A program made the position numbers and the translations under genes. The notes under the pieces were generated by a model. It ran no database searches and was not told the DNA's origin. It was given only the letters and a program-made list of their open reading frames with translations. Below are positions 1,853-39,688 of a stretch of 39,688 nt of DNA, in pieces. Location: the IMG/VR virus record IMGVR_UViG_3300010939_000031. The stretch is one strand, 5' to 3'. Numbering within the stretch: the first letter of the stretch is position 1; each line of letters opens with the position of its first letter. Source of the DNA: a virus.

Positions 1853-2350
1853 ATGGCAGATAAAAATCATATACGTGGCACAGGTCGCCGCGGCCCTGCC
1901 CGCACGCCTAGCCATTTGAAAATTGTATCAGGCACAGACCGCGCAGACCGCTCCACTACTGGCATTTTTAAATTGACCGACAATACTGATCCTGTTTGTC
2001 CGGCGCACCTTAACGCCGGTGAGATTGCGGACTGGAATGAAGCTATAGAACTACTGCGCCCGATGGGGATTTTGTCGTCTACTGATGCATCTGTACTGAC
2101 GGCCTACTGTATTTCAAAAAACCTTGTAAGGGAAGCGTCAGAAGAGATTTCGGCTAGTGGTTTGTTTTCCGCGTCGTCAGCTGGGGTAGCGACTGCGCAC
2201 CCCGCCGTAGCCGTCAGGAGGCAGGCAATGACGGATATGGTTAGCTATGCCATACAAATGGGGATGACACCAGCGGCACGGCTCAGGCTCAACGCTGAAT
2301 CTTCAAAGAAAAAAGCCAATCCCTTTGACGCACTGAAAAACAGTGGGTGA
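1853..2350 (+). CDS. terS: Terminase small subunit (P27 family-like)
   Basis: P.HL...E...W......L...G.L...D...L..YC pattern, C-terminal FG(M)TPAAR.RL, and position before terL. Confidence 0.75.
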   Translation: MADKNHIRGTGRRGPARTPSHLKIVSGTDRADRSTTGIFKLTDNTDPVCPAHLNAGEIADWNEAIELLRPMGILSSTDASVLTAYCISKNLVREASEEISASGLFSASSAGVATAHPAVAVRRQAMTDMVSYAIQMGMTPAARLRLNAESSKKKANPFDALKNSG

Positions 2351-5105
2351 TTACGCCGCCCGTGCGATCGAATACGCTGAACACGCGGTTGACAAGAAAA
2401 ACAAGGGCAGTTACGGCAAGTGGACAATATTAGCCGCTAAACGCTTCCTTGGCGACTTAAAGAGGGCGAAAGCAAAAAACCCGCCGTTTTACTTTTCAGT
2501 GGCACAGGCGAACCGTGCGTGCGCTTTCATAGAGCAGTTACCCCATGTTGAAGGTGTGTGGGATACACCTACAATCGTTCTGCACGACTCAGATATATTT
2601 TTCATCTGCCAGTTGTTCGGCTTTCGGAAAGAGGACGGAACGCGGCGGTTCACTACGGCGCTTAAGGCCATCGCTAGGAAAAACGCAAAAGCGCTCGCTC
2701 TTGATACGCCGGTTGCAACGCCGGGCGGCTGGTCGACGATGGGTGATCTGGCGCTGGGCGACACGGTGTTCGGCGCTGACGGCCAGCCGTGCCGGGTGAC
2801 TGCAACAAGCCCAGTCTATATCGACCACGAATGCTACCGGCTCACATTCAGCAACGGCGAGGAAGTAATCGCTGATGCTGGACATCTTTGGATTACGACG
2901 GCGCGAGTGGATAAGCCGAACGGAAAGCCAGCGGGGAACAAGCAGACTCGGACGCGAGTACGCACCACGCAGGAGATCGTGGACACTCTACAGCACGGCT
3001 CACGTCGTGACACGAATCACTCCATCGCCATGCCTGCGCCGCTGGACTGTGCCGAGGCCGTCCTTCCAGTCGCTCCGTACACGTTAGGCGCTTGGCTGGG
3101 TGACGGCCACTCCGCAGGAGCCAGGCTGACATGCGACCGAAATGATATAGAAATTTTTGACGGAATCCGCATAGATGGATGGCCGGTGCGGGAGATGAGC
3201 CGGTCATCCGGCAAGGCTTCGCTATTCTCCCTGTCAAACGGAGACCGCAGCAGGGCGGTGCGTGACCTCTCGCTTATGTCGGCGCTTCGCAGGATGGGAG
3301 TACTCAACGACAAGCACATTCCAGCAGAATACCTTCGGGCATCGCTGAATCAGCGGCTTGCACTTTTACAGGGGTTGATGGATACAGACGGCACCGTTTC
3401 CAAAAACGGGCGGGTCATTTCCTTTACCGGCGTCAACGAACGGCTTGTGTGTGGTGTAGCTGAGCTTTTGGCAAGCATGGGCGTCAAATATTCGTGGCGT
3501 CGTGATCCGCTGGTATGCAACGGTAGACCGGTGCCCGGTGTTGGGCATAAGTTGCAATTTATGGCTTTTCGCGACGAGCTACCTGTTTTCAGGCTTCGCA
3601 GAAAGCTGGACAGAATGCTGCTCCGATCTGATTGCAATATTGCTTCACGGTCGCGCACGGTGCAGGTCGTGGCAGCCGAGCGGGTTCAGTCCGTACCAGT
3701 GCGATGCATTACGGTGGATTCGCCTAATCACCTATTCTTGTGCGGCAAAACGATGTTGCCGACGCACAACAGCACCATCGCCGCAGGAATTGCACTTTAC
3801 TGCCAAACCATGGAGCACGAAGTGGGGCCGCAGATCATCGCCGCCGCCACGACCGGCGATCAGGCGCGAATCGTTTTTAAAATCGCCAAACGCATGGTGG
3901 AAAAAACCCCCGATCTTCGGGAGGCGTTCGGCCTTGAGGCATTCGCTAATGCAATAGCCAGCTTTAACAACGGCGGCACATTCAAGGCCATTTCAGCCAA
4001 AGCCAGCACTCAAGACGGCTTAAACCCCTCCTGTCTCATCCTTGATGAGATTCACGCGCACAAAAATAGCGAACTACTCGACGTATTGAGGTCGGCGGCT
4101 GGCGCCAGACGTAACCCATTATTTCTCTATGCCACTACCGAGGGTTACGAATCACCCGGCCCGTGGCATGAGTTGCGTGACATGGCTAAGAAAGTGCTGT
4201 CCGGCAAGTTGGTGGCCGATCACTTCCTTGCCGTCTACTACGCAATAGACGATGACGACGACGACTTCGACGAATCTTGCTGGATAAAAGCAAATCCGTT
4301 GATGGACGTTAATCCCATCTTGCTTACCGAGTTGCGCAAAGAAGCCATTGAAGCCAAGGCCATGCCGGGCAAGATGGCTGAGTTCCGAATCAAACGCCTT
4401 AACCGTCAGAGTGCAACCGCGCAAGGCTGGATTAACTTTGACAAGTGGAAGAAGTGCGCCAAGAAAGTTGACCTGGAATATCTCAAGCAATTTCCTTGCT
4501 ACGGCGGTCTTGATCTTGCGAGCACTTCTGATCTTTGTTCGTTCCGCTTGGTTTGGTATGTCGATGGCGTCTATTACACATGGGGCAGGCGCTGGGTTCC
4601 TGAGACGGCTGTAGCGACGCGAACGACGCGAGGTAGCGTTCCTTACCAGTCATGGGTTGAGTCGGGCTACATAGAGCAAACCAAGGGCGAGATTACAGAT
4701 TACGGTGTAGTGGCGGCGGCGATTATTGAGGCGTGTGAGCGTTTCAATGTTCAGGGCATCGGTTACGACCAATGGAACGCCGCGCAACTTGTAGCAAAGC
4801 TAGAAGCTGAAAATATTCCAATGCAGATTTTCATCCAAGGGCCAAAAAGCTACCACCCTGCTATGCAGGAATTTGAACGTGCTTATGTGTCGGGTAACTT
4901 TCATTACGGCCACGACCCGGTATTGACGTGGAACGCATCAAACCTTGTAACAAGGACAGATCAAAACATGAATACCGCACCGGACAAGAAAAAATCGTCA
5001 GACAAAATTGATGACATGGTAGCACTGCTTATGGCGTTCGGCGTGGTAAATCAAACGCGAGACACAAACATAGATGATTTTATTAATAACCCGGTTATCT
5101 GCTGA
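2343..5105 (+). CDS. terL: Terminase large subunit, interrupted by an in-frame intein
   Basis: The Walker A motif is split: ..AIARKNAK | intein | STIAAGIALY.., giving RKNAKST after splicing. The C-terminal half has a DEIH Walker B motif and a nuclease domain. Mature length is 560 aa. Confidence 0.9.
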   Translation: MGDYAARAIEYAEHAVDKKNKGSYGKWTILAAKRFLGDLKRAKAKNPPFYFSVAQANRACAFIEQLPHVEGVWDTPTIVLHDSDIFFICQLFGFRKEDGTRRFTTALKAIARKNAKALALDTPVATPGGWSTMGDLALGDTVFGADGQPCRVTATSPVYIDHECYRLTFSNGEEVIADAGHLWITTARVDKPNGKPAGNKQTRTRVRTTQEIVDTLQHGSRRDTNHSIAMPAPLDCAEAVLPVAPYTLGAWLGDGHSAGARLTCDRNDIEIFDGIRIDGWPVREMSRSSGKASLFSLSNGDRSRAVRDLSLMSALRRMGVLNDKHIPAEYLRASLNQRLALLQGLMDTDGTVSKNGRVISFTGVNERLVCGVAELLASMGVKYSWRRDPLVCNGRPVPGVGHKLQFMAFRDELPVFRLRRKLDRMLLRSDCNIASRSRTVQVVAAERVQSVPVRCITVDSPNHLFLCGKTMLPTHNSTIAAGIALYCQTMEHEVGPQIIAAATTGDQARIVFKIAKRMVEKTPDLREAFGLEAFANAIASFNNGGTFKAISAKASTQDGLNPSCLILDEIHAHKNSELLDVLRSAAGARRNPLFLYATTEGYESPGPWHELRDMAKKVLSGKLVADHFLAVYYAIDDDDDDFDESCWIKANPLMDVNPILLTELRKEAIEAKAMPGKMAEFRIKRLNRQSATAQGWINFDKWKKCAKKVDLEYLKQFPCYGGLDLASTSDLCSFRLVWYVDGVYYTWGRRWVPETAVATRTTRGSVPYQSWVESGYIEQTKGEITDYGVVAAAIIEACERFNVQGIGYDQWNAAQLVAKLEAENIPMQIFIQGPKSYHPAMQEFERAYVSGNFHYGHDPVLTWNASNLVTRTDQNMNTAPDKKKSSDKIDDMVALLMAFGVVNQTRDTNIDDFINNPVIC
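2691..3770 (+). mobile_element. Intein (360 aa) with a LAGLIDADG homing-endonuclease domain, class-3-like
   Basis: Starts ALALDTPV (block A with Ala1) and ends ..LPTHN followed by +1 Ser. Block B reads DAGHLW (Trp at B:12), block F RCITVDSPNHLF (Cys), block G T-H-N, giving the WCT triplet. Two LAGLIDADG motifs: LGAWLGDGHS and LLQGLMDTDGT. Confidence 0.8.
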
Positions 5106-6331
5106 TGTTTAACCCCTTCTCGCGATGGTTCGGGCGTGGCGGCGCAATGAGCGAGACTCAAGGCCAGCAGAACGCCGTGCCGTCTGTCGCGCTCGTTTCC
5201 GACTCAGGCAATATTGGGCCAGATGGCGCACTGCAAATATCTACGGTATGGGCGTGCATTGACCGCCGCGCCACCACGATAGCCAGCTTGCCATTTTTTG
5301 CCTATGAGCAAGTGAACGGGCAGAAAACACTTGCCCGTGCCAGCCGTCTGTATTCTCTGCTACATGAAAGCCCTAACTCTAGGATGACGCCGCTGGAATT
5401 TTGGCGTGCCATGGTCATGAATCACGACCTTCGTGGAAACGCTTACGCACGCATAGAGCGCGACAACAGCGGTGAAGCTATTGCCATGTGGCCTATGCCA
5501 GCCGATCAAGTCACGGCCACGGTGCTGCCTGACGGCTCGATGGTCTACGCGTACCAGATCGGGTCTGATGTGGCTGTTTTTGATGAATCGAATGTCCTGC
5601 ATCTTAAAAATCTAGGCAATGGCACGACCGGCATGGCAAAGCTGGAATTTATGCGAGCAACCACCGACGAAGCGGCCAAGGCGCAATCAGCGGCAAGCAA
5701 GATTTTCGGCGCAGGGGGTAAACCCACCGGCGTGCTGATGGTCGATAAAGTGTTGAACCCAGAGCAGCGCAAGGCGCTTCTTGCTTCGTTTGCTGGGATG
5801 TCAGAGGGCAACACGTCCCGGTTGTACCTTCTCGAAGCCAGCATGAAATACGAACAACTTTCCATGACACCGGAAGATCAGCAGCTTCTCGCTACACGGA
5901 TGTACGGCGTCGAGGAACTATGTAGATTTTTAGATGTGCCGCCCGTAATGATAGGGCACTCTAATGTTACCGCGTGGGGCAGCGGGATCGAACAAATAGT
6001 AGATGGCTGGCACAAGTTAAGTCTTCGCCCAATGCTTGTAAACATCGAGCAGGCTGTGCGCAAACGCGTGATGACGCCAAGACAACGGGCAACGATGTCG
6101 GTTGAGTTTTCTGTTGATGCCCTGTTACGTGGGAACTTGAAGGATCGCATGGAAATTTATGCGAAGGCTACGCAGAACGGTATTTATGATCGAAATGAGT
6201 GCCGCCAGCTTGAAAACCTGCCGCCGCGAGATGGTGCGAATGAGCTTACCGCACAATCCAACCTCATTCCATTGTCAGCGATGGGTAAACAGATCGCCAG
6301 CGGCGGGGATGGCGGCACGTTGGCGCAGTAA
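5105..6331 (+). CDS. Portal protein (HK97 family)
   Basis: 408 aa with TGATG overlap with terL and a typical portal pattern (ISTVWACIDRRATTIASLPF..., PEDQQLL). Position between terL and protease. Confidence 0.9.
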   Translation: MFNPFSRWFGRGGAMSETQGQQNAVPSVALVSDSGNIGPDGALQISTVWACIDRRATTIASLPFFAYEQVNGQKTLARASRLYSLLHESPNSRMTPLEFWRAMVMNHDLRGNAYARIERDNSGEAIAMWPMPADQVTATVLPDGSMVYAYQIGSDVAVFDESNVLHLKNLGNGTTGMAKLEFMRATTDEAAKAQSAASKIFGAGGKPTGVLMVDKVLNPEQRKALLASFAGMSEGNTSRLYLLEASMKYEQLSMTPEDQQLLATRMYGVEELCRFLDVPPVMIGHSNVTAWGSGIEQIVDGWHKLSLRPMLVNIEQAVRKRVMTPRQRATMSVEFSVDALLRGNLKDRMEIYAKATQNGIYDRNECRQLENLPPRDGANELTAQSNLIPLSAMGKQIASGGDGGTLAQ

Positions 6332-7099
6332 TCTATTCGCCCTCTTGGTTGACTCAACTTTTGCGTAATGCTCCGGCGTCCTTTTCTTCGCTGCTGCTGA
6401 CATCCTTGCTCTTGATTCGTCGCTTATGTTTTTGCTTGGGAGGCCAAGCGATAGCTTGAGCAGGCGGTTTTTCGCTTGGGTTGCAGTTCTTTTGGCAATA
6501 CTTTCATGGTTGAGCTTTCGCCCTGTAAGAGATTTAGAGATCAACGCCCGCGCTTCTGCACTTATGACGCGACCGCTTTGGGCGAGAGACATTTTCGCTC
6601 TCGATTCTTTTGTATGTGATTTCCCGGTGTGGGAAATTGATAGCCGCTGACGCATTTCATCAGTAAAAACTCGGATGGCGTTAGCGGCGCTGATTTTTGC
6701 CTTGGCTTCTTCTGTCCAAGTTTGTTTTGAGCTTGCAAGTGAGAGTTTTGCTCTTGTCTCAGCGCTAATGTTTAGTTTTGAGATCGCGATCTTCTTGCAA
6801 GATTCGTCGCTCAACTTATATGCGCCGCCACCTGATGTGAGGTTGAAGCCGTGCGGCGATATGCAATTGTGGATTTCGATCCATTTTGATTCAGCTTGGT
6901 TGAGTTCGTCGCGGTCGCAAAGCTCAAGAATTGATGTAGAGAACGCTTTCCACCCGTGTTTTGCAATGGTTTGGCCTAAGCGCATCTTGCATTTGCCCTT
7001 TGCGTGCTGCGACCAGCGCAACTTTATATCAACGCTCTGGCCGACATATTTCCGACCTGTTGCTGTGTGCGTGATCAGGTAGATGCCGCACAGTTTCAC
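6275..7099 (-). CDS. GIY-YIG homing endonuclease with NUMOD3-like repeats
   Basis: N-terminus CGIYLITH..GRKYVGQS..RWSQH. About six S/T-x-E-x-R-A-K-x-S repeats. Opposite strand to all flanking structural genes. GTG start overlaps the stop of the upstream RHH ORF. Confidence 0.85.
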   Translation of the reverse strand: MKLCGIYLITHTATGRKYVGQSVDIKLRWSQHAKGKCKMRLGQTIAKHGWKAFSTSILELCDRDELNQAESKWIEIHNCISPHGFNLTSGGGAYKLSDESCKKIAISKLNISAETRAKLSLASSKQTWTEEAKAKISAANAIRVFTDEMRQRLSISHTGKSHTKESRAKMSLAQSGRVISAEARALISKSLTGRKLNHESIAKRTATQAKNRLLKLSLGLPSKNISDESRARMSAAAKKRTPEHYAKVESTKRANRLLRQRAAIPAAGDLFTHR

Positions 7100-24873: not shown

Positions 24874-25842
24874 TTAGCGTTTAATAGGGGTCACTTTGAC
24901 GGGTGCACGCTTGTAATGCCGCTCTAAAGTGGCCGCATTTTTGTGGCCTAAAAGCTTATCGTCGGTTGATTCGGAACCGGCTTTTGCCCTTAGGTCATGA
25001 AACGTGAACCGCTCGGTAATTAGACCATCTTTCATCGCCTGTACCATTCTCCTCTGCCACATGGTGCGGAATCCATCGCTTGTGTAGTGTTGGCCTTCGC
25101 GGTTATAGATCAATGCCAGTGTGGATATTTTGGTGGGTAAGCTACGGCACCGGGCAATGGTTGCGGCAAGATCGGGGGTACGATCAAACAATAGTACGCG
25201 ACCTGTTTTGCCGGTTTTAACCAATAAACCCGCCTCCGTCCAGTCGCCCAACCGTAATTTTATTATGTCGGCCTGCCTAAGCCCGGTTGTAACCGCGATA
25301 TCCATCGCGCATTGGATCGGTTCGGGCATGATATTGTAAATAGCTGTGTAATCCGCATCGCTCACATACCGGGTACGGGGGTTTTCCGTGTTACGGGTGA
25401 CTAATCGGCAGGGGTTGCGCTCGGTCATGCCCCATCGTATGCAGTGCTGAAAAACATCGGAAAATGTGCCTTTGATTTCCCGATTCGCGCTAACAGCGGG
25501 GCGCTTATCCATGTAGGCATAAATATGTGGAGGGGTAACTTCATCGGGGCGCATTTCGCCGAATACGGCGCGTAGGAAGCCCAGGGCGCGTAAATAACCT
25601 TGCTGTGTGGCTCGGCCTTTAGTTGGCAAGATTTCGCGGGTGTAGCGGTCTATGGCGTGGCCTAGCGTGGTGACAGGGGAGGGCATAGCGTTTAGCTTTG
25701 CGTACTCGACCATCGCGGCGGGAAATTCCTTACCCAGTCCGTGCCATTTCCCTGCGCGATCTACGAAATAATAGGCCCCACGCCGTTGATACACCCGCTC
25801 GGGCAGGTCTTTTCTTGTTTTCCTTGTTCGTCCCATGTGCAT
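24874..25842 (-). CDS. int: Tyrosine integrase
   Basis: C-terminal HDLRAKAGSE...LLGH......ERHY (R-H-R-Y catalytic pattern). Adjacent to attP. Confidence 0.9.
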   Translation of the reverse strand: MHMGRTRKTRKDLPERVYQRRGAYYFVDRAGKWHGLGKEFPAAMVEYAKLNAMPSPVTTLGHAIDRYTREILPTKGRATQQGYLRALGFLRAVFGEMRPDEVTPPHIYAYMDKRPAVSANREIKGTFSDVFQHCIRWGMTERNPCRLVTRNTENPRTRYVSDADYTAIYNIMPEPIQCAMDIAVTTGLRQADIIKLRLGDWTEAGLLVKTGKTGRVLLFDRTPDLAATIARCRSLPTKISTLALIYNREGQHYTSDGFRTMWQRRMVQAMKDGLITERFTFHDLRAKAGSESTDDKLLGHKNAATLERHYKRAPVKVTPIKR

Positions 25843-27158: not shown

Positions 27159-27440
27159 TCACAGCGATGCTTCCTGCTTCATCCGCCCTTCCAGTGAAGG
27201 CGCGTCCACAGGCTCACCGGGCAACCCCTGCCCTGAATACCTTAAACTCTCGACTTCGTGCGCCAACTTCAGCGCCTGAGAATTGTCGCCCGATCCCTCG
27301 CTATAAGAGGTTGTCATAATCTTGTTCATCGCCTCGCGCATTCCCTTCAGCGTCGACGGCATTGTGTAGTATTTCAACGCCGATCCTGAAGCGCGCAACA
27401 CTTCATCAAGTGCGGCGTCTACTTTTTCTTGCGGTATCAT
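27159..27440 (-). CDS. Hypothetical early protein (93 aa)
   Basis: I prefer ATG 27440 (MIPQEKVDAALDEVL...). The track start at 27473 would put the first 11 codons inside the IS left-end hairpin. Confidence 0.5.
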   Translation of the reverse strand: MIPQEKVDAALDEVLRASGSALKYYTMPSTLKGMREAMNKIMTTSYSEGSGDNSQALKLAHEVESLRYSGQGLPGEPVDAPSLEGRMKQEASL

Positions 27441-27456
27441 CAAAGCCCCCGTGAAA

Positions 27457-27477
27457 CCCCTGCCTTTAGGCATGGGG
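27457..27477 (+). repeat. Left-end subterminal hairpin (IS608-like, bulged T)
   Basis: cccctgcc-TTTA-ggca-T-gggg. It is nested in an outer gccccc (27445-27450) / gggggc (27484-27489) stem followed by gTTTTcT. Confidence 0.7.
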
Positions 27478-27504
27478 AGGTAAGGGGGCGGTTTTCTATT
27501 GTGC

Positions 27505-27532
27505 TTGACATTGCGCTAAACTCCTCTATACT
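27505..27532 (+). promoter_or_regulatory. Near-consensus sigma70 promoter for tnpB inside the left end
   Basis: TTGACA 27505-27510, 16-nt spacer, TATACT 27527-27532. ATG lies 7 nt further on (27540) with no SD. Confidence 0.55.
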
Positions 27533-27539
27533 TGACAAC

Positions 27540-28649
27540 ATGAAACTGGTAGCCAACCTCAAACTGAAGCCAACCAAAGAGCAAGAGCAGATGCTGAAGG
27601 CTACGCTTGAGCGCTGCAACGAAGCCTGTAATTGGCTTTCTGGTCAGGCTTGGGAAGCTAAGATTTTCAGGCAATACGATCTGCACAAACTTTGTTACCA
27701 CGAACTTCGCGCCAAGTTTGAGATAACGGCTCAGGTAGCTGTACGTTGCATTGCCAAGGTCGCGGATTCGTACAAGGTTGACCAAAAGACACAGCGCACT
27801 TTCCGCAAACATTCCGCACAGCCATACGATGACCGCATCCTTCGCTTTTGTGCGGATGATGTTGTGTCGATCTGGCTTGTGTCCGGGCGCGAGAAAATCG
27901 CCTACGCTTGCGGCGATCACCAGCGCGAACTTCTCAAATACAGAAAGGGCGAAGTTGACCTGATGTTCGTGCGCGGCAAGTGGTATCTCGCGGCTGTTTG
28001 TGACTTCGACGACCCCAAGCTGCTTACCCCGAATGGTGTGCTTGGTGTGGATTTCGGAATCGTTAGCATTGCCACCGACAGCATTGGCAACCAATACTCC
28101 GGCGCGAAGGTTGAAGCGAACCGGCAACGATACGCCAAACGCCGAGCAACATTGCAGCGTGTAGGCACCAGAGCAGCAAAGAGCCGCCTTCGCAAGATGA
28201 GCGGCAAGCAACAAAGGTTTCAAAAGCACGAGAACCACTGTATTTCCAAAGCAATCGTTTCCACTGCTGAACGCTCCTGCCTGGGTATTGCTCTCGAAGA
28301 TTTGACGCATATCCGTTCGCAGGTTAAGGCCAGAAAAAAGCAGCGCAACCGATTGCACAACTGGGGCTTCGGCCAGCTTCGAGACTTTGTAGAGTACAAA
28401 GCCAAGCGAGCCGGAGTTCCCGTTACGATTGTCGATCCACGTAACACCAGCCGAACTTGCGCTGAATGCGGGCATATCGACAAGCGCAACAGGAAAACCC
28501 AGCCCGAGTTTCTGTGTGTCGCCTGCGGGCATAGTTCTAACGCCGACGACAACGCAGCCCGGAACATTTCCGGGAAGGGTAGCTTTGTAAATCTGCCTAT
28601 GTTCGCGCATACGTTTGCCCCGTGTGCAGTGGAAAGCCCCCGGCTTTAG
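27540..28649 (+). CDS. tnpB: TnpB (IS605 OrfB-type RNA-guided nuclease), 369 aa
   Basis: N-terminus MKLVANLKLKPTKEQEQML. RuvC-I GVDFG, RuvC-II ALEDL, Zn finger CAECGH...CVACGH, RuvC-III NADDNAARNI. The TTG-27429 extension in the track crosses the hairpin and is rejected. Confidence 0.9.
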   Translation: MKLVANLKLKPTKEQEQMLKATLERCNEACNWLSGQAWEAKIFRQYDLHKLCYHELRAKFEITAQVAVRCIAKVADSYKVDQKTQRTFRKHSAQPYDDRILRFCADDVVSIWLVSGREKIAYACGDHQRELLKYRKGEVDLMFVRGKWYLAAVCDFDDPKLLTPNGVLGVDFGIVSIATDSIGNQYSGAKVEANRQRYAKRRATLQRVGTRAAKSRLRKMSGKQQRFQKHENHCISKAIVSTAERSCLGIALEDLTHIRSQVKARKKQRNRLHNWGFGQLRDFVEYKAKRAGVPVTIVDPRNTSRTCAECGHIDKRNRKTQPEFLCVACGHSSNADDNAARNISGKGSFVNLPMFAHTFAPCAVESPRL

Positions 28650-28665
28650 CCGTGGGGTTATTTAC
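28500..28665 (+). ncRNA. Predicted omega RNA (reRNA) scaffold overlapping the tnpB 3' end and right end; 5' limit not determinable
   Basis: By analogy to characterised TnpB systems. The 3' hairpin is at 28637-28657, and the guide would start just after about 28665. Confidence 0.4.
28637..28657 (+). repeat. Right-end subterminal hairpin (IS608-like, bulged T)
   Basis: cccccggc-TTTA-gccg-T-gggg preceded by AAAG and followed by ttatTTACatc. Confidence 0.7.
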
Positions 28666-28877
28666 ATCTTTTTTATCCTCAGCACAATCCCATCCCAGCA
28701 CATGCACCCCATCATTATGGATGGCTCAATATCAACAACCTCATACTCGGCGGCGTCATCTTCAACTTCCACCCTTACAGAAGATGGCATTTCATGTGAT
28801 GAGATATTCCCCGCGCCGTCGCACCCCACCTCCTCGGCAATTGTTGCTACACGGCCGGCGAATTGTTTTACTAGCAT
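28662..28877 (-). CDS. Hypothetical acidic protein (71 aa); its stop codon lies in the IS right end
   Basis: ORF ends ...LRIKKM-TAA, with the TAA at 28662-28664 inside the TTAC of the IS end. Confidence 0.45.
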   Translation of the reverse strand: MLVKQFAGRVATIAEEVGCDGAGNISSHEMPSSVRVEVEDDAAEYEVVDIEPSIMMGCMCWDGIVLRIKKM

Positions 28878-29074
28878 TATTTTTTCCTCAGCAGCAAGCT
28901 AACAACATCTTCGCACCTGTCATCAAGATCGCCATTCATGCATGCGCCCTGAATCTCCAAGCAGATAGCAAATCGCTCATCAAGTCGCGCTTGATTCATC
29001 GCCAGGATGGCGTGGCTTCTTACCAATGCCCCGTGCCCCTCGCTGAAAATGTCAAAAATCTCATCGTTCGTCAT
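28877..29074 (-). CDS. Hypothetical protein (65 aa)
   Basis: ATGA overlap with the next gene. Its ATG is created at the junction of the 53-bp tandem duplication. Confidence 0.45.
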   Translation of the reverse strand: MTNDEIFDIFSEGHGALVRSHAILAMNQARLDERFAICLEIQGACMNGDLDDRCEDVVSLLLRKK

Positions 29075-29126
29075 ACCAATGCCCCGTGCCCCTCGCTGAA
29101 AATGTCAAAAATCTCATCGTTCGTCA
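29021..29126. repeat. Perfect 53-bp tandem duplication (29021-29073 = 29074-29126)
   Basis: taccaatgccccgtgcccctcgctgaaaatgtcaaaaatctcatcgttcgtca occurs twice. It spans the ssb stop and the first 17 codons of the next gene. Confidence 0.95.
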
Positions 29127-29540
29127 AAATGGAATCGAGTCTTCGTCAAAATCTTCAATCTTTTCTTCTGCTGCGGGGCGGCGCCCACCTCCCTGTGAAT
29201 TATCTGAAATTTTAGCGTCTAGTAATTGCATTTCATTGGCAATGATCTTGGTGCTGTAGCGGTCTGCGCCGGTGGCTTTGTCCTGGTATTTTTCAGTTTT
29301 CATGCGCCCTGAAATGTAAAGCTTGGAGCCGACTCTTACATATTTTTCGGCTATTTCGGCCAGTTTATTGAAAGCAACGCAATTCACCCATTCAACAGCC
29401 TCGACCTTTTCTCCGTTTTTGTTTTTGTATTTTTCGTTGACGGCGAGAGAAATATTGGTAACCGCGCCGCCCGAAGGCGCGTACCTGGTTTCAATCTTGC
29501 CAACATTTCCAATGAATGCGCAGTTATTTAGTGATGCCAT
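29124..29540 (-). CDS. ssb: Single-stranded DNA-binding protein
   Basis: OB-fold N-terminus (MASLNNCAFIGNVGK..ETRY..SG....NISLAV) and acidic tail DFDEDSIPF. Confidence 0.9.
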   Translation of the reverse strand: MASLNNCAFIGNVGKIETRYAPSGGAVTNISLAVNEKYKNKNGEKVEAVEWVNCVAFNKLAEIAEKYVRVGSKLYISGRMKTEKYQDKATGADRYSTKIIANEMQLLDAKISDNSQGGGRRPAAEEKIEDFDEDSIPF

Positions 29541-29744: not shown

Positions 29745-30365
29745 CTAGTTAAATTCTTGAATCTCTTTAAGAACCCTATCCCGCTCCACAATTACATTCT
29801 GAATCTGGTCAAATAGCGCATGTATTATAGTCTCGTTGCGATGCTGTCTTATCGTCAGACATGGTAAATTTTCATTATAGAAAAACAGATCACACCAATC
29901 GCGCTCACATACAAAAATCTGCCCTTGCGTCTGCTGAATATAATCAGGCGGACATTTGCCGTGTTTGCGGTAGTATAAAAGCGCCTTGATGTGGTTTTCA
30001 GCCTTGAGGCACTTTATCTCAAGGAGCCCATCGCCATCTATAATACTGTCAGGCGAACACCCATATGTTGCCGCGTCATCTGTCACGAACCCGATAATTT
30101 CAGGGCTGGTGCCGCTCAAAAAGGTGTACATTTTACGCGCCTCATCTTCAAGAGCTTTCCCCCGTTCCGTGTAGGCGTTGCCCTCAAACGATTCGAGCGG
30201 CTTCCCTGCGTACAGCTCACCGGCCAACGTTATGGCGTAGCCACACAAAGACTCTGACTGCTTGCCAGTTGACGTGATGAGCTTACTGAAGCACGAGGCG
30301 GTTGGCATCCCGCTTCTCAGTTTCAGCCACTCTTCCGTGCCCTGTTCGATGTCGTGAGCTATCAC
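29745..30365 (-). CDS. YqaJ-like (lambda Exo-type) recombination exonuclease
   Basis: QGTEEWLKLRSG..TAS......., TERGKALE.EAR..Y, SPD....DGLLEIKC (PD-(D/E)xK motif). Confidence 0.85.
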   Translation of the reverse strand: MIAHDIEQGTEEWLKLRSGMPTASCFSKLITSTGKQSESLCGYAITLAGELYAGKPLESFEGNAYTERGKALEDEARKMYTFLSGTSPEIIGFVTDDAATYGCSPDSIIDGDGLLEIKCLKAENHIKALLYYRKHGKCPPDYIQQTQGQIFVCERDWCDLFFYNENLPCLTIRQHRNETIIHALFDQIQNVIVERDRVLKEIQEFN

Positions 30366-30940
30366 GCGGCGGCCTTTGGTTTTTTGTCGCGCTTGGCGTT
30401 CACCATCGCCACGGCTTTCCCGTATTCGCCAGCCGGTAATTCTCTCAGGGACGCGATTTTGAAATATCCCATAAATGCTTTTTTGTCTCCGCCTACCTCT
30501 TCGAGTAGCGCATCAAGATCGGCGGCTTGGCTTTCGGTTATCAATACTGGCTTACCCGGTTTCCTGTCTCTTGACGCGCTGTTGCCATCATCATCCTCTG
30601 GGGCTATGCCGCACGCGGCCATTAGCGAGTATCTGCGTGCGTATGTCAAGGCCGACCCATATCCTTGCGGGTCAGACTTAACCGCGGGGACATGAAGCCT
30701 GCCGGACTCGATAGACTCACCAGATGAGTGCAAAAACACCGTTTCAACTATAACGCCATCATCGCACTCGTGGCAGCGCTGTATCAGCGCAATTCCTGCG
30801 TCATTCAAAGCGTCAATGACGGCTTCGACGCACGCCGACAAATCGGCATATTTTGATTTAAAATGCGGGTTCGTGTTCGTCTTCAACGCTGGCGCAAAGT
30901 TTTTCTGCGCATTCACCATTGCTGCTGCAATTTCTTTCAT
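30362..30940 (-). CDS. ERF-family single-strand annealing protein
   Basis: AQKNF.PALKTNTNPHFKSKYADLSACVEAV..AL...GIAL.Q, then GSALTYARRYSLMAACGI.PEDDDG. Confidence 0.8.
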   Translation of the reverse strand: MKEIAAAMVNAQKNFAPALKTNTNPHFKSKYADLSACVEAVIDALNDAGIALIQRCHECDDGVIVETVFLHSSGESIESGRLHVPAVKSDPQGYGSALTYARRYSLMAACGIAPEDDDGNSASRDRKPGKPVLITESQAADLDALLEEVGGDKKAFMGYFKIASLRELPAGEYGKAVAMVNAKRDKKPKAAA

Positions 30941-32803: not shown

Positions 32804-33439
32804 TTATGGGGTAAAAATATAGGCTATCTTGATAGTAGAAAACGCCCCTGCGGTATATTCGTTATTTTTGTTGCCGACATCGCTAAATTGGATATAGTCT
32901 AGACGAAAAGCGTTGCGAGTGCTCGGCTTGAATGCCCCCCCTATGCCAAATAGCGCCCCCGCGCCTGAGTCAGAATCACCCTCACAAGAACTTGAAAAAC
33001 TCGACTGACATGTTGATTTATTGTTGGTTGCCGCTAAACCAGCCCGCGCATGGATTGATATTTTGTCGCTGATGTTGGCAGAAAAAATTCCGGCTAACGA
33101 TACCGCTGAAACCATGTTGCGCTCTACGATTCCGTATTTTGTTCCAGCCACTTTAATAGTTGCAACGAGGTCGTATGTGCCTAGGTAATCATAACCAATC
33201 TCAGCGTCAATATTATCGTTGACGTGATAGCCAATTGCTAAACTAGCCGCGTTCGCCTGTATGTGGTAGCTGATTTCTGAGGTCGCTCCTGCCGCCGCCA
33301 ACCTCTCTTTAATTTTGTTTACATTACTTTCGGCATCGTCCGCTTTTGTGGTACCTAGCCCCGCCCCAAAATATACCCCCCCTGCAAAAATTGAAGGAGA
33401 TGCCATTAATAGCCCAAATAACAGTAGAGCTTTTTTCAT
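32804..33439 (-). CDS. Outer-membrane beta-barrel protein (OmpA-TM/OMP_b-brl-like), lysogenic-conversion candidate
   Basis: Signal peptide MKKALLLFGLLMASPSIFA, then GVYFGAGLG... and alternating aromatic beta strands to the C-terminus. Confidence 0.75.
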   Translation of the reverse strand: MKKALLLFGLLMASPSIFAGGVYFGAGLGTTKADDAESNVNKIKERLAAAGATSEISYHIQANAASLAIGYHVNDNIDAEIGYDYLGTYDLVATIKVAGTKYGIVERNMVSAVSLAGIFSANISDKISIHARAGLAATNNKSTCQSSFSSSCEGDSDSGAGALFGIGGAFKPSTRNAFRLDYIQFSDVGNKNNEYTAGAFSTIKIAYIFTP

Positions 33440-39024: not shown

Positions 39025-39209
39025 AAGGCTGTATAAAATGCTGTTCGATCAGTATTCAGCATATCCTGGGGCGTGTGCGGTATCTGTGCGCACGTGACGC
39101 CTCGCGGTCAAGGCACCCAAGCTGCCACGACGAGCGAAAAAGTGTATCAGGGGGCCGATGTGGCCCGGATGGGCAGTTTTACATAAGCGGTCAGGATGAT
39201 GAATGCTGA
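39021..39209 (+). CDS. Small Cys-rich hypothetical protein (62 aa)
   Basis: ATGA overlap upstream and ATGCTGA overlap with the HNH start downstream. Weak coding evidence. Confidence 0.3.
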   Translation: MKGCIKCCSISIQHILGRVRYLCARDASRSRHPSCHDERKSVSGGRCGPDGQFYISGQDDEC

Positions 39210-39688
39210 TAGACGATGTGGTGATCACACAGGAAGACCTTAAAAAAATCCTGCATTATGAACCTGAGACTGGCTTGTTTACCTGGATTGCTGCCAGGGC
39301 GAGCAATAAAATGAAAGCCGGACAGGTTGCCGGAGGTATAAGCGTCCAAGGGTATGTCCGTATCAGCATCAAGGCAAAGAGATATCTTGCTCACAGGCTG
39401 GTTTGGCTCTATGTCCACGGGCATTTTCCGCCCGACCATACTGATCACATCAATGGGATAAAAACAGACAACAGGTTATGTAATCTGCGTGCCGCGACAC
39501 ACGCGCAGAACTTAACTAACAGGGGGGAGACGCGAGGTAGACCCCCGGGGGCAAAGGGGGTCTATTGGGATAAGCGACGCAAAAAGTGGGTCGTCCGGTG
39601 CAAGGCTAATGGCAAATTTCTTTATTTTGGCAGTTTCAACACCATCGAAGCCGCGTCTGCAGTGTATCAAGAATTTGCAAAAAAGCAT
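39203..39688 (+). CDS. HNH (HNH_3) + AP2-domain homing-endonuclease-like protein, N-terminal part (continues at nt 1-141 of the circle)
   Basis: Own translation: MLIDDVVITQEDLKKILHYEPETGLFTW...AHRLVWLYVHGHFPPDHTDHINGIKTDNRLCNLRAATHAQN...KGVYWDKRRKKWVVRCKANGK. Not in the ORF track because it runs off the window end. Confidence 0.8.
   Translation, partial: MLIDDVVITQEDLKKILHYEPETGLFTWIAARASNKMKAGQVAGGISVQGYVRISIKAKRYLAHRLVWLYVHGHFPPDHTDHINGIKTDNRLCNLRAATHAQNLTNRGETRGRPPGAKGVYWDKRRKKWVVRCKANGKFLYFGSFNTIEAASAVYQEFAKKH
39584..39688. repeat. Terminal overlap copy (identical to 1-105)
   Basis: See the first feature. Confidence 0.95.

Follow-up and report, generated by a model that had tools for sequence, protein, structure and literature searches.

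The IMG/VR virus record IMGVR_UViG_3300010939_000031 is a stretch of 39,688 nucleotides (nt), and the whole of it, hereafter the window, was analyzed here. At 27441–28665 it carries an insertion sequence (IS) of the IS200/IS605 family that contains tnpB and no transposase gene tnpA, and which lies antisense to the leftward early operon for recombination and integration (ERF, YqaJ, SSB to int). A TnpA-less IS200/IS605-family TnpB element in this orientation had been described in a first-pass annotation of the window, and both points stand. The features of the locus are as follows.

27441–28665, + strand: complete tnpB-only (IS1341-type) IS200/IS605 element, 1,225 bp, no target duplication (from the empty site in contig L265 and about 60 family copies)
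27437–27440, + strand: 5′ flanking motif TCAT, read as the transposon-adjacent motif (TAM); ATGA on the gene strand, with 27438–27440 as the ATG of the 93-amino-acid (aa) open reading frame (ORF)
27441–27539, + strand: left end, with an outer stem (27445–27450 paired with 27484–27489) enclosing a hairpin (27457–27477) with a bulged T
27505–27532, + strand: tnpB promoter, TTGACA-16 nt-TATACT, 11 of 12 matches to the consensus
27540–28649, + strand: tnpB, 369 aa, with RuvC D171/E253/D336 and a CxxC...CxxC zinc finger (Pfam, NCBIfam, family alignment)
28513–28665, + strand: predicted omega-RNA scaffold of five helices, overlapping the tnpB 3′ end and the right end
28662–28665, + strand: right-end terminus TTAC, the presumed site of cleavage on the right (GTTAC or TTTAC closes all 35 distinct right ends of the family)
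28666–28685, + strand: predicted omega-RNA guide and homing target, ATCTTTTTTATCCTCAGCAC, in the 3′ end of the 71-aa ORF, which is on the opposite strand
28662–28877, − strand: upstream early-left ORF, 71 aa, ending in KKM-TAA; without the element, KKI-TGA or KKT-TGA (P0128, P0129; L265–L267)
27159–27440, − strand: downstream early-left ORF, 93 aa (MIPQEK...), the first of five small genes before int (gene calls in L081–L084, homologs)

A tnpB-only element with conserved ends

Three features place the element in IS200/IS605: a TnpB-type protein with a split RuvC D-E-D triad and a zinc ribbon; imperfect subterminal hairpins at both ends, whose stems covary across copies and which are not accompanied by terminal inverted repeats; and seamless insertion 3′ of a fixed short motif, as seen from empty sites (L265, L266, L267 and L185). 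The Y1 (HUH) transposase gene tnpA that marks the IS605/IS608 subgroup was not found. The 1,225 bp are occupied by tnpB, its promoter and the two ends, leaving no space for such a gene, and 38 other window ORFs scanned with Pfam gave no Y1_Tnp match, in agreement with the first-pass annotation. Nor was tnpA present in any of about 60 family copies (1,199–1,257 bp each), which were gathered from genomes, viral contigs and metagenomes and whose TnpB proteins are 54–96% identical. We therefore place the element in the IS1341 (tnpB-only) subgroup. The family is present in non-viral contigs too, and several copies are located in phage genomes, where TnpB genes are common (matches in 450 records). 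A search of Rfam gave no family at the gathering thresholds.

The two hairpins of matching design reported by the first-pass annotation, at 27457–27477 and 28637–28657, each fold with a bulged T in the 3′ arm, and the left end as DNA folds with −13.7 kcal/mol. The same architecture recurs across the family. Each left end has a hairpin within an outer stem, with TCAT 14–24 nt upstream in most copies. At each right end a GGAAAG-type motif comes first, followed by a hairpin that covaries between copies and in many of them has the stop codon of tnpB in its loop; a short spacer leads to the terminal GTTAC or TTTAC, beyond which the flanks diverge and are unrelated between copies. Of 56 independent copies, 44 show TCAT before the left end (the remainder have CCAT, TCAC, TCAA or TTAC), a count that is partly circular because many left boundaries were set by eye using this motif; the family left-end alignment was also made by eye. 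Independent checks of the boundaries came from two empty sites and from near-identical element pairs in different flanks. An A that follows TTAC in the three closest copies was considered as part of the right end and rejected, since L265 puts the boundary at 28665|28666, as the first-pass annotation had it, and other copies have any base at this position.

Empty sites reveal insertion at a stop/start overlap

When viral contigs were scanned for exact matches to the empty junction as predicted, none was found, and no relatives of the 71-aa ORF turned up there either. Homologs of the 71-aa ORF led to three element-free contigs, L265, L266 and L267. In L265 and L266, DNA matching window 29077–28666 runs directly into DNA matching 27440–27412, and position 1201|1202 of L265 corresponds to window 28666|27440, fixing both boundaries of the element. 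The empty-site junction on the gene strand reads GGATAAAAAAGAT|ATGATACCGCAAG; here the 71-aa ORF ends in RIKKI-TGA, and its TGA overlaps the ATG of MIPQEK to form an ATGA overlap. L267 shows the same arrangement, with the upstream ORF ending in KKT-TGA. Empty alleles came from samples SRR33230242, SRR33270683 and SRR33230344. Precise removal of the element from the window restores AAG AT|A TGA, overlapping ATG ATA CCG, with the junction AAAAAGAT|ATGATACC. The insertion site is the ATGA stop/start overlap between the 71-aa and 93-aa early-left genes. ATGA read on the other strand is TCAT, and the element is always found 3′ of that motif, so that at such an overlap tnpB necessarily comes to lie antisense to both genes.

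The first-pass annotation had placed the left boundary at 27441|27442, predicted that precise excision would fuse the two flanking ORFs in frame, and suggested that the IS had split one gene. The boundary actually lies one base to the left, at 27440|27441, the downstream ATG being 27438–27440. No fusion arises in the natural empty sites, which show KKI followed by a stop that overlaps the ATG, and alignment with the uninterrupted L265, L266 and L267 shows two separate ORFs with an ATGA overlap, the outcome that the annotation itself had named as speaking against its proposal. Its count of six genes between the element and int also had to be corrected, to five. We considered L182, which carries a homolog of the 93-aa ORF, as a fused gene that would support the split; its 151-aa ORF (149–604) joins an unrelated Cys-rich N-terminal part in frame to that homolog. 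This candidate was rejected as a mosaic relative and not an empty site, since the part upstream bears no relation to the 71-aa ORF, and its homology to the window starts at the ATG. From the latter point, modules in this phage group also meet at the ATGA junction.

The insertion leaves both neighbouring genes intact. As the first-pass annotation had noticed, the upstream stop codon (TAA, 28662–28664) lies within the terminal TTAC and the downstream ATG abuts the left end. The TTA of TTAC is the in-frame TAA stop of the antisense 71-aa ORF; the upstream gene gives up A plus TGA and receives a G plus TAA from TTAC, a new stop one codon further on, so that its end changes from ATA-TGA to ATG-TAA (KKI to KKM). 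The ATG within TCAT remains attached to the 93-aa ORF and starts it. The reverse complement of the left end presents GGGGG 5 nt before the ATG of the 93-aa ORF; many relatives have GGAG or GGAGG in its place, at 5–8 nt.

Such junctions are enriched among the insertion sites of the family. Long antisense ORFs flank both sides in the frame of an ATGA overlap in 11 of 31 independent insertions with enough flank, whereas in control phage DNA the figure for TCAT sites is 7.3% (p = 7e-6), and GTGA and TTGA overlaps are the counterparts of the TCAC and TCAA left flanks. The enrichment is most simply explained by the survival of insertions that do no harm, and adaptation of the end sequences is possible. 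In the library searched, no paper came up that reports TCAT as a TAM or elements inserted at stop/start overlaps, an absence that is weak evidence.

A sister element in an unrelated phage

A TnpB 79% identical to that of the window (P0017) is found in an unrelated phage, antisense between a 65-aa ORF and a Cpn10-like gene. The viral contig L185 is this sister phage without the element: L185 1–961 and 962–3824 match the flanks in the element-bearing contig L085 exactly at the predicted boundaries. Its junction, GATGAAGA|ATGACG, is a second ATGA overlap, and the upstream ORF changes synonymously from GAA-TGA in the empty allele to GAG-TAA in the filled one. L185, the sole empty sister allele that was found, has four mismatches (positions 6, 13, 15 and 18) to the predicted guide at L085 5124–5143.

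The sister element, 1,242 bp, is 100% identical in eight contigs from different samples, which represent at least five flanking haplotypes. Identity between haplotypes ends 17–633 nt to the left and 62–760 nt to the right of the element, and beyond these points it falls to 72–95% (72–90% when taken per 100 nt). This is the pattern that would be expected of recent horizontal copying with short co-conversion tracts.

TnpB and its predicted omega RNA

The first-pass annotation had recognized a 369-aa TnpB with an intact RuvC triad and a zinc finger, and profile searches agree. The protein matches Pfam OrfB_IS605 (PF01385) and Cas12f1-like_TNB (PF07282) and scores 174 bits against NCBIfam guided_TnpB (cutoff 100). 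D171 (GVDFG), E253 (ALEDL), D336 (NADDNAA) and C307/C310/C326/C329 are unchanged throughout an alignment with 46 relatives, and the catalytic residues align with the motifs of solved Cas12f, to which the protein is closer (E = 6e-29) than to ISDra2 TnpB (only E = 6e-7). The ratio of nonsynonymous to synonymous substitution (dN/dS) for tnpB is 0.09–0.16 against seven full-length family copies and a partial copy (L001, described below). At about 0.1, it shows that purifying selection acts on TnpB. It looks like a functional nuclease.

The promoter reported earlier is also borne out: the −35 TTGACA (27505–27510) and the −10 TATACT (27527–27532) are followed by the tnpB ATG 7 nt past the −10, with no Shine-Dalgarno sequence ahead of it, and among 63 distinct upstream regions of the family at least 41 have a −10-like hexamer 6–7 nt ahead of the tnpB start. 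The tnpB mRNA is probably leaderless and transcribed from its own promoter.

The last approximately 150 nt of the element have the position and form expected of an omega-RNA scaffold, and the structure is strongly supported by covariation, in line with the omega RNA proposed in the first-pass annotation. RNAalifold on 19 copies gave 40 pairs, 19 of them with compensatory changes; 95.5% of scaffold cells were paired, against 39–48% in slid controls, and none of 500 shuffles reached 95.5%. The single-sequence fold has z = −3.5. The last helix is the right-end hairpin (28637–28657), with the tnpB stop codon in its loop.

The predicted guide, ATCTTTTTTATCCTCAGCAC, occurs once within the window. 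In L265 and L266, TCAT is followed by a sequence identical at 26 of 26 nt to that just 3′ of the right end. At 28637–28680 (+ strand), the right-end hairpin is followed by TTATTTAC in this copy and its two closest relatives. In the window the T-rich phage flank comes after TTATTTAC, and together they resemble an intrinsic terminator that could compete with guide synthesis. The U-rich spacer is missing in other family members.

The phage and its other selfish elements

At about 39.7 kb, the window has the appearance of a complete genome of a temperate phage. Among the rightward genes are those for both terminase subunits (small and large), the portal, a protease and tail proteins, and the leftward block holds ERF (30362–30940), YqaJ (29745–30365), SSB (29124–29540), small ORFs, a DUF4224 protein and the integrase (24874–25842). 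The element region and the structural genes were searched against 50,697 phage records, among which no DNA relatives were found, so that this collection does not contain the phage. At least nine metagenome contigs are assemblies of essentially this same genome. One of the contigs examined, L180, was considered as a carrier of a diverged element and rejected; its differences are a scaffold gap of Ns and four substitutions.

Several other nuclease genes were noticed. The large terminase subunit TerL (2343–5105, + strand, 920 aa) has a LAGLIDADG homing-endonuclease domain (residues ~337–388) before the bulk of its ATPase domain, and this insertion looks like an intein. A free-standing GIY-YIG/NUMOD3 homing-endonuclease-like gene (6275–7099, − strand) lies antisense between portal and prohead protease, and an HNH gene is at 1451–1759. 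With these two genes and the TnpB element, the phage carries several selfish nuclease elements. Six-frame translation further revealed an ORF running off the end of the window (~39200–39688, + strand; MLIDDVVITQ...), with a DHINGIKTDNRLCNLR motif resembling phage HNH homing endonucleases.

A perfect 53-bp tandem duplication (29021–29126, 2.0 copies) spans the start of a 65-aa ORF, and it seems to be polymorphic, since contig L083, from the same phage, departs from the window at exactly this place and is without that ORF call. An OmpA-like beta-barrel outer-membrane protein is encoded at 32804–33439 (− strand; Pfam E = 6e-21) and may be a lysogenic-conversion gene. The closest non-identical copy of the element, at 1–703 of L001, a contig of a Gallionella sp. 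metagenome-assembled genome, has 96% protein identity over TnpB residues 142–369. It adjoins a 420-aa ORF that is tail-fibre-like by eye and may sit in a prophage, which gives a weak hint at the host group of the window phage.

Discussion

The class of element described here is already known, and it is its natural history, with filled and empty versions in related phages, that is instructive. Window 27441–28665 is a non-autonomous, tnpB-only (IS1341-type) IS of the IS200/IS605 family, and we consider it likely that it persists and spreads by TnpA-independent, RNA-guided homing. The first-pass annotation had suggested homing, and the empty sites and the haplotypes of the sister lineage now give the suggestion comparative support.

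No tnpA was found in the element, in about 60 relatives or in 38 other window ORFs, and new insertions would have depended on a TnpA supplied by the host. In the mechanism we propose, a host Y1 TnpA acting in trans would account for the original arrival and for arrivals at new sites, inserting the element without duplication immediately 3′ of TCAT, where the left end would supply a G-rich, Shine-Dalgarno-like sequence 5 nt ahead of the downstream ATG. The omega RNA would extend about 16–20 nt into the flank and direct TnpB to cleave the empty allele of related phages, whether these co-infect the cell or are resident in it. Repair would then draw on the element-bearing genome, possibly with the help of the adjoining phage ERF/SSB/YqaJ recombination genes, and the element would be copied without TnpA (non-restorative homing, or gene drive). 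The filled allele would be protected, since the element separates the motif from the target. The empty alleles of L265 and L266 would be ready-made targets, and the filled and empty versions of the site in related phages fit phage-to-phage copying by RNA-guided homing.

Several points weigh against this interpretation, in addition to the circularity in the TCAT counts. Expression of TnpB and cleavage by it are predicted, as are the ends of the omega RNA and the length of its guide. In this copy, transcripts might end at the U-rich tract after the right-end hairpin, before the guide. A Shine-Dalgarno-like motif is present in only 23 of 48 left-end variants, and we therefore treat the supply of such a sequence by the left end as suggestive. 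The copies of the window phage (L081–L084) are clonal, so that the mosaic signature comes only from the sister lineage; in that lineage the loci were retrieved through exact identity of the TnpB protein, which biases towards identical elements, although this bias does not explain the zero synonymous and non-coding changes in the sister element. The empty sister allele L185 may be a cleavage-resistant escape allele, or may never have been targeted. Finally, ordinary mosaic recombination between phages might also move an element with short flanks.

The last point leads to the alternative that competes best, which we regard as rather unlikely: the element would be a passive passenger that a TnpA of the host, acting in trans, inserted a single time into an ATGA junction where it did no harm, and that has persisted because its cost is low. 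TnpB and its omega RNA would then act at most in classical restorative homing when TnpA is present, and the identical elements would reflect ordinary recombination between mosaic phages. The clonal population of the window phage is compatible with such a history, as are the mosaic phage genomes, in which L182 and L265 switch modules right at the junction, and the junction enrichment is explicable through survivorship alone. It is difficult, however, to reconcile a passenger with the strong purifying selection on TnpB (dN/dS about 0.1), or with a conserved promoter and a covarying RNA in a clade in which none of about 60 copies has tnpA. Zero differences in 1,242 bp across at least five flank haplotypes that differ by 5–28% nearby also argue against it.

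TnpB and the omega RNA could instead be kept mainly as a weapon that destroys related competitors with the uninterrupted junction (superinfecting phages or resident prophages), copying of the element being a by-product. Natural relatives do offer empty targets with a perfect match, the window carries further homing-type nucleases, and phage homing endonucleases are reported to act in competition, in a review (PMC13565253) among other papers. But the guide is fixed by the insertion site, so that only close relatives would be hit, and at one site, and the family is also present in non-viral contigs. Sequence alone cannot tell a weapon from homing, and we judge this explanation improbable. A domesticated, nuclease-independent regulator of the TldR type or a decaying relic is highly improbable: phage-encoded TnpB-derived transcription factors are known, but a dead or domesticated TnpB was rejected here on the triad invariant in 46 relatives and the dN/dS of about 0.1, the zinc finger is equally invariant, the ORF and both transposon ends are intact, and the predicted guide is the element's own flank, as in mobile elements, and is found nowhere else in the window, whereas TldR proteins have lost RuvC residues and have guides matching a host promoter.

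The element can be compared with three known systems. Members of the IS1341 group are like it in being about 1.2 kb long with tnpB alone, in having subterminal hairpins and not inverted repeats, and in lacking target duplication and having a fixed short 5′ motif. IS1341-type genes have a non-coding RNA that overlaps the tnpB 3′ end, as described in PMC4615843, and the RNA predicted here likewise overlaps this end. The present clade differs in having TCAT on the left and TTAC at the right terminus, in that antisense NTGA stop/start overlaps are over-represented among its insertion sites, and in that several copies are found in phage genomes.

IS608 (ISHp608) and ISDra2 share seamless insertion and excision with the element, and a TnpB guide RNA, here predicted, that runs from the right end into the flank. 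Hairpin ends with an extrahelical base are a further feature in common with IS608, whose right end finishes in TCAA. Both elements carry tnpA, whereas the present one does not. The first-pass description of the element as IS608-like holds only at the level of the family; it fails for tnpA, for the motifs (TCAT before the left end, TTAC at the close of the right end) and for the protein, which is closer by sequence to solved Cas12f structures than to ISDra2 TnpB. The reported targets are TTAC for IS608 and TTGAT for ISDra2 (PMC13565253), and a restorative homing model is set out for these elements in PMC10055086 and PMC8612924.

The free-standing homing endonuclease genes of phages (e.g., T4 seg and mob) resemble the element in another way. 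They too are nuclease genes between conserved phage genes, with filled and empty alleles in related phages, an identical insert with short co-converted flanks in diverged backgrounds, and self-protection by an insert that splits the recognition elements. The difference is that target recognition in the present case would depend on an RNA guide plus a 5′ motif and not on a protein. Non-restorative homing of transposons into co-infecting phages or plasmids is treated as theoretical in the 2026 review (PMC13565253), where a plasmid gene-drive result independent of TnpA is also cited.

TnpB-only elements are very abundant, and how they persist without a transposase is debated. The natural pairs of filled and empty alleles in two phage lineages come with exact junctions, a predicted TAM (TCAT) and predicted guides, which make TnpA-independent homing between viruses, so far a theoretical category, directly testable. 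As a small, 369-aa relative of Cas12f whose predicted TAM is simple and four bases long, the protein may also interest builders of genome-editing tools. That the end sequences of an IS can preserve both neighbours at an ATGA overlap bears on the tolerance of mobile DNA in compact genomes, and it is relevant to annotation because such insertions resemble ordinary gene junctions.

Tentatively, and with some doubt, we extend the idea to the clade as a whole: its TnpB elements may be adapted to the tightly packed gene arrays of phages and operons and may spread transposase-free as a natural RNA-guided gene drive in viruses. If this is true, the 5′ motif, complementary to ATGA, the TAA in the right end and the frequent ribosome-binding sequence in the left end would make insertion almost scarless for both genes, and by cleaving junctions that lack the element when phages co-infect, TnpB with its omega RNA would propel it through phage populations that have diverged.

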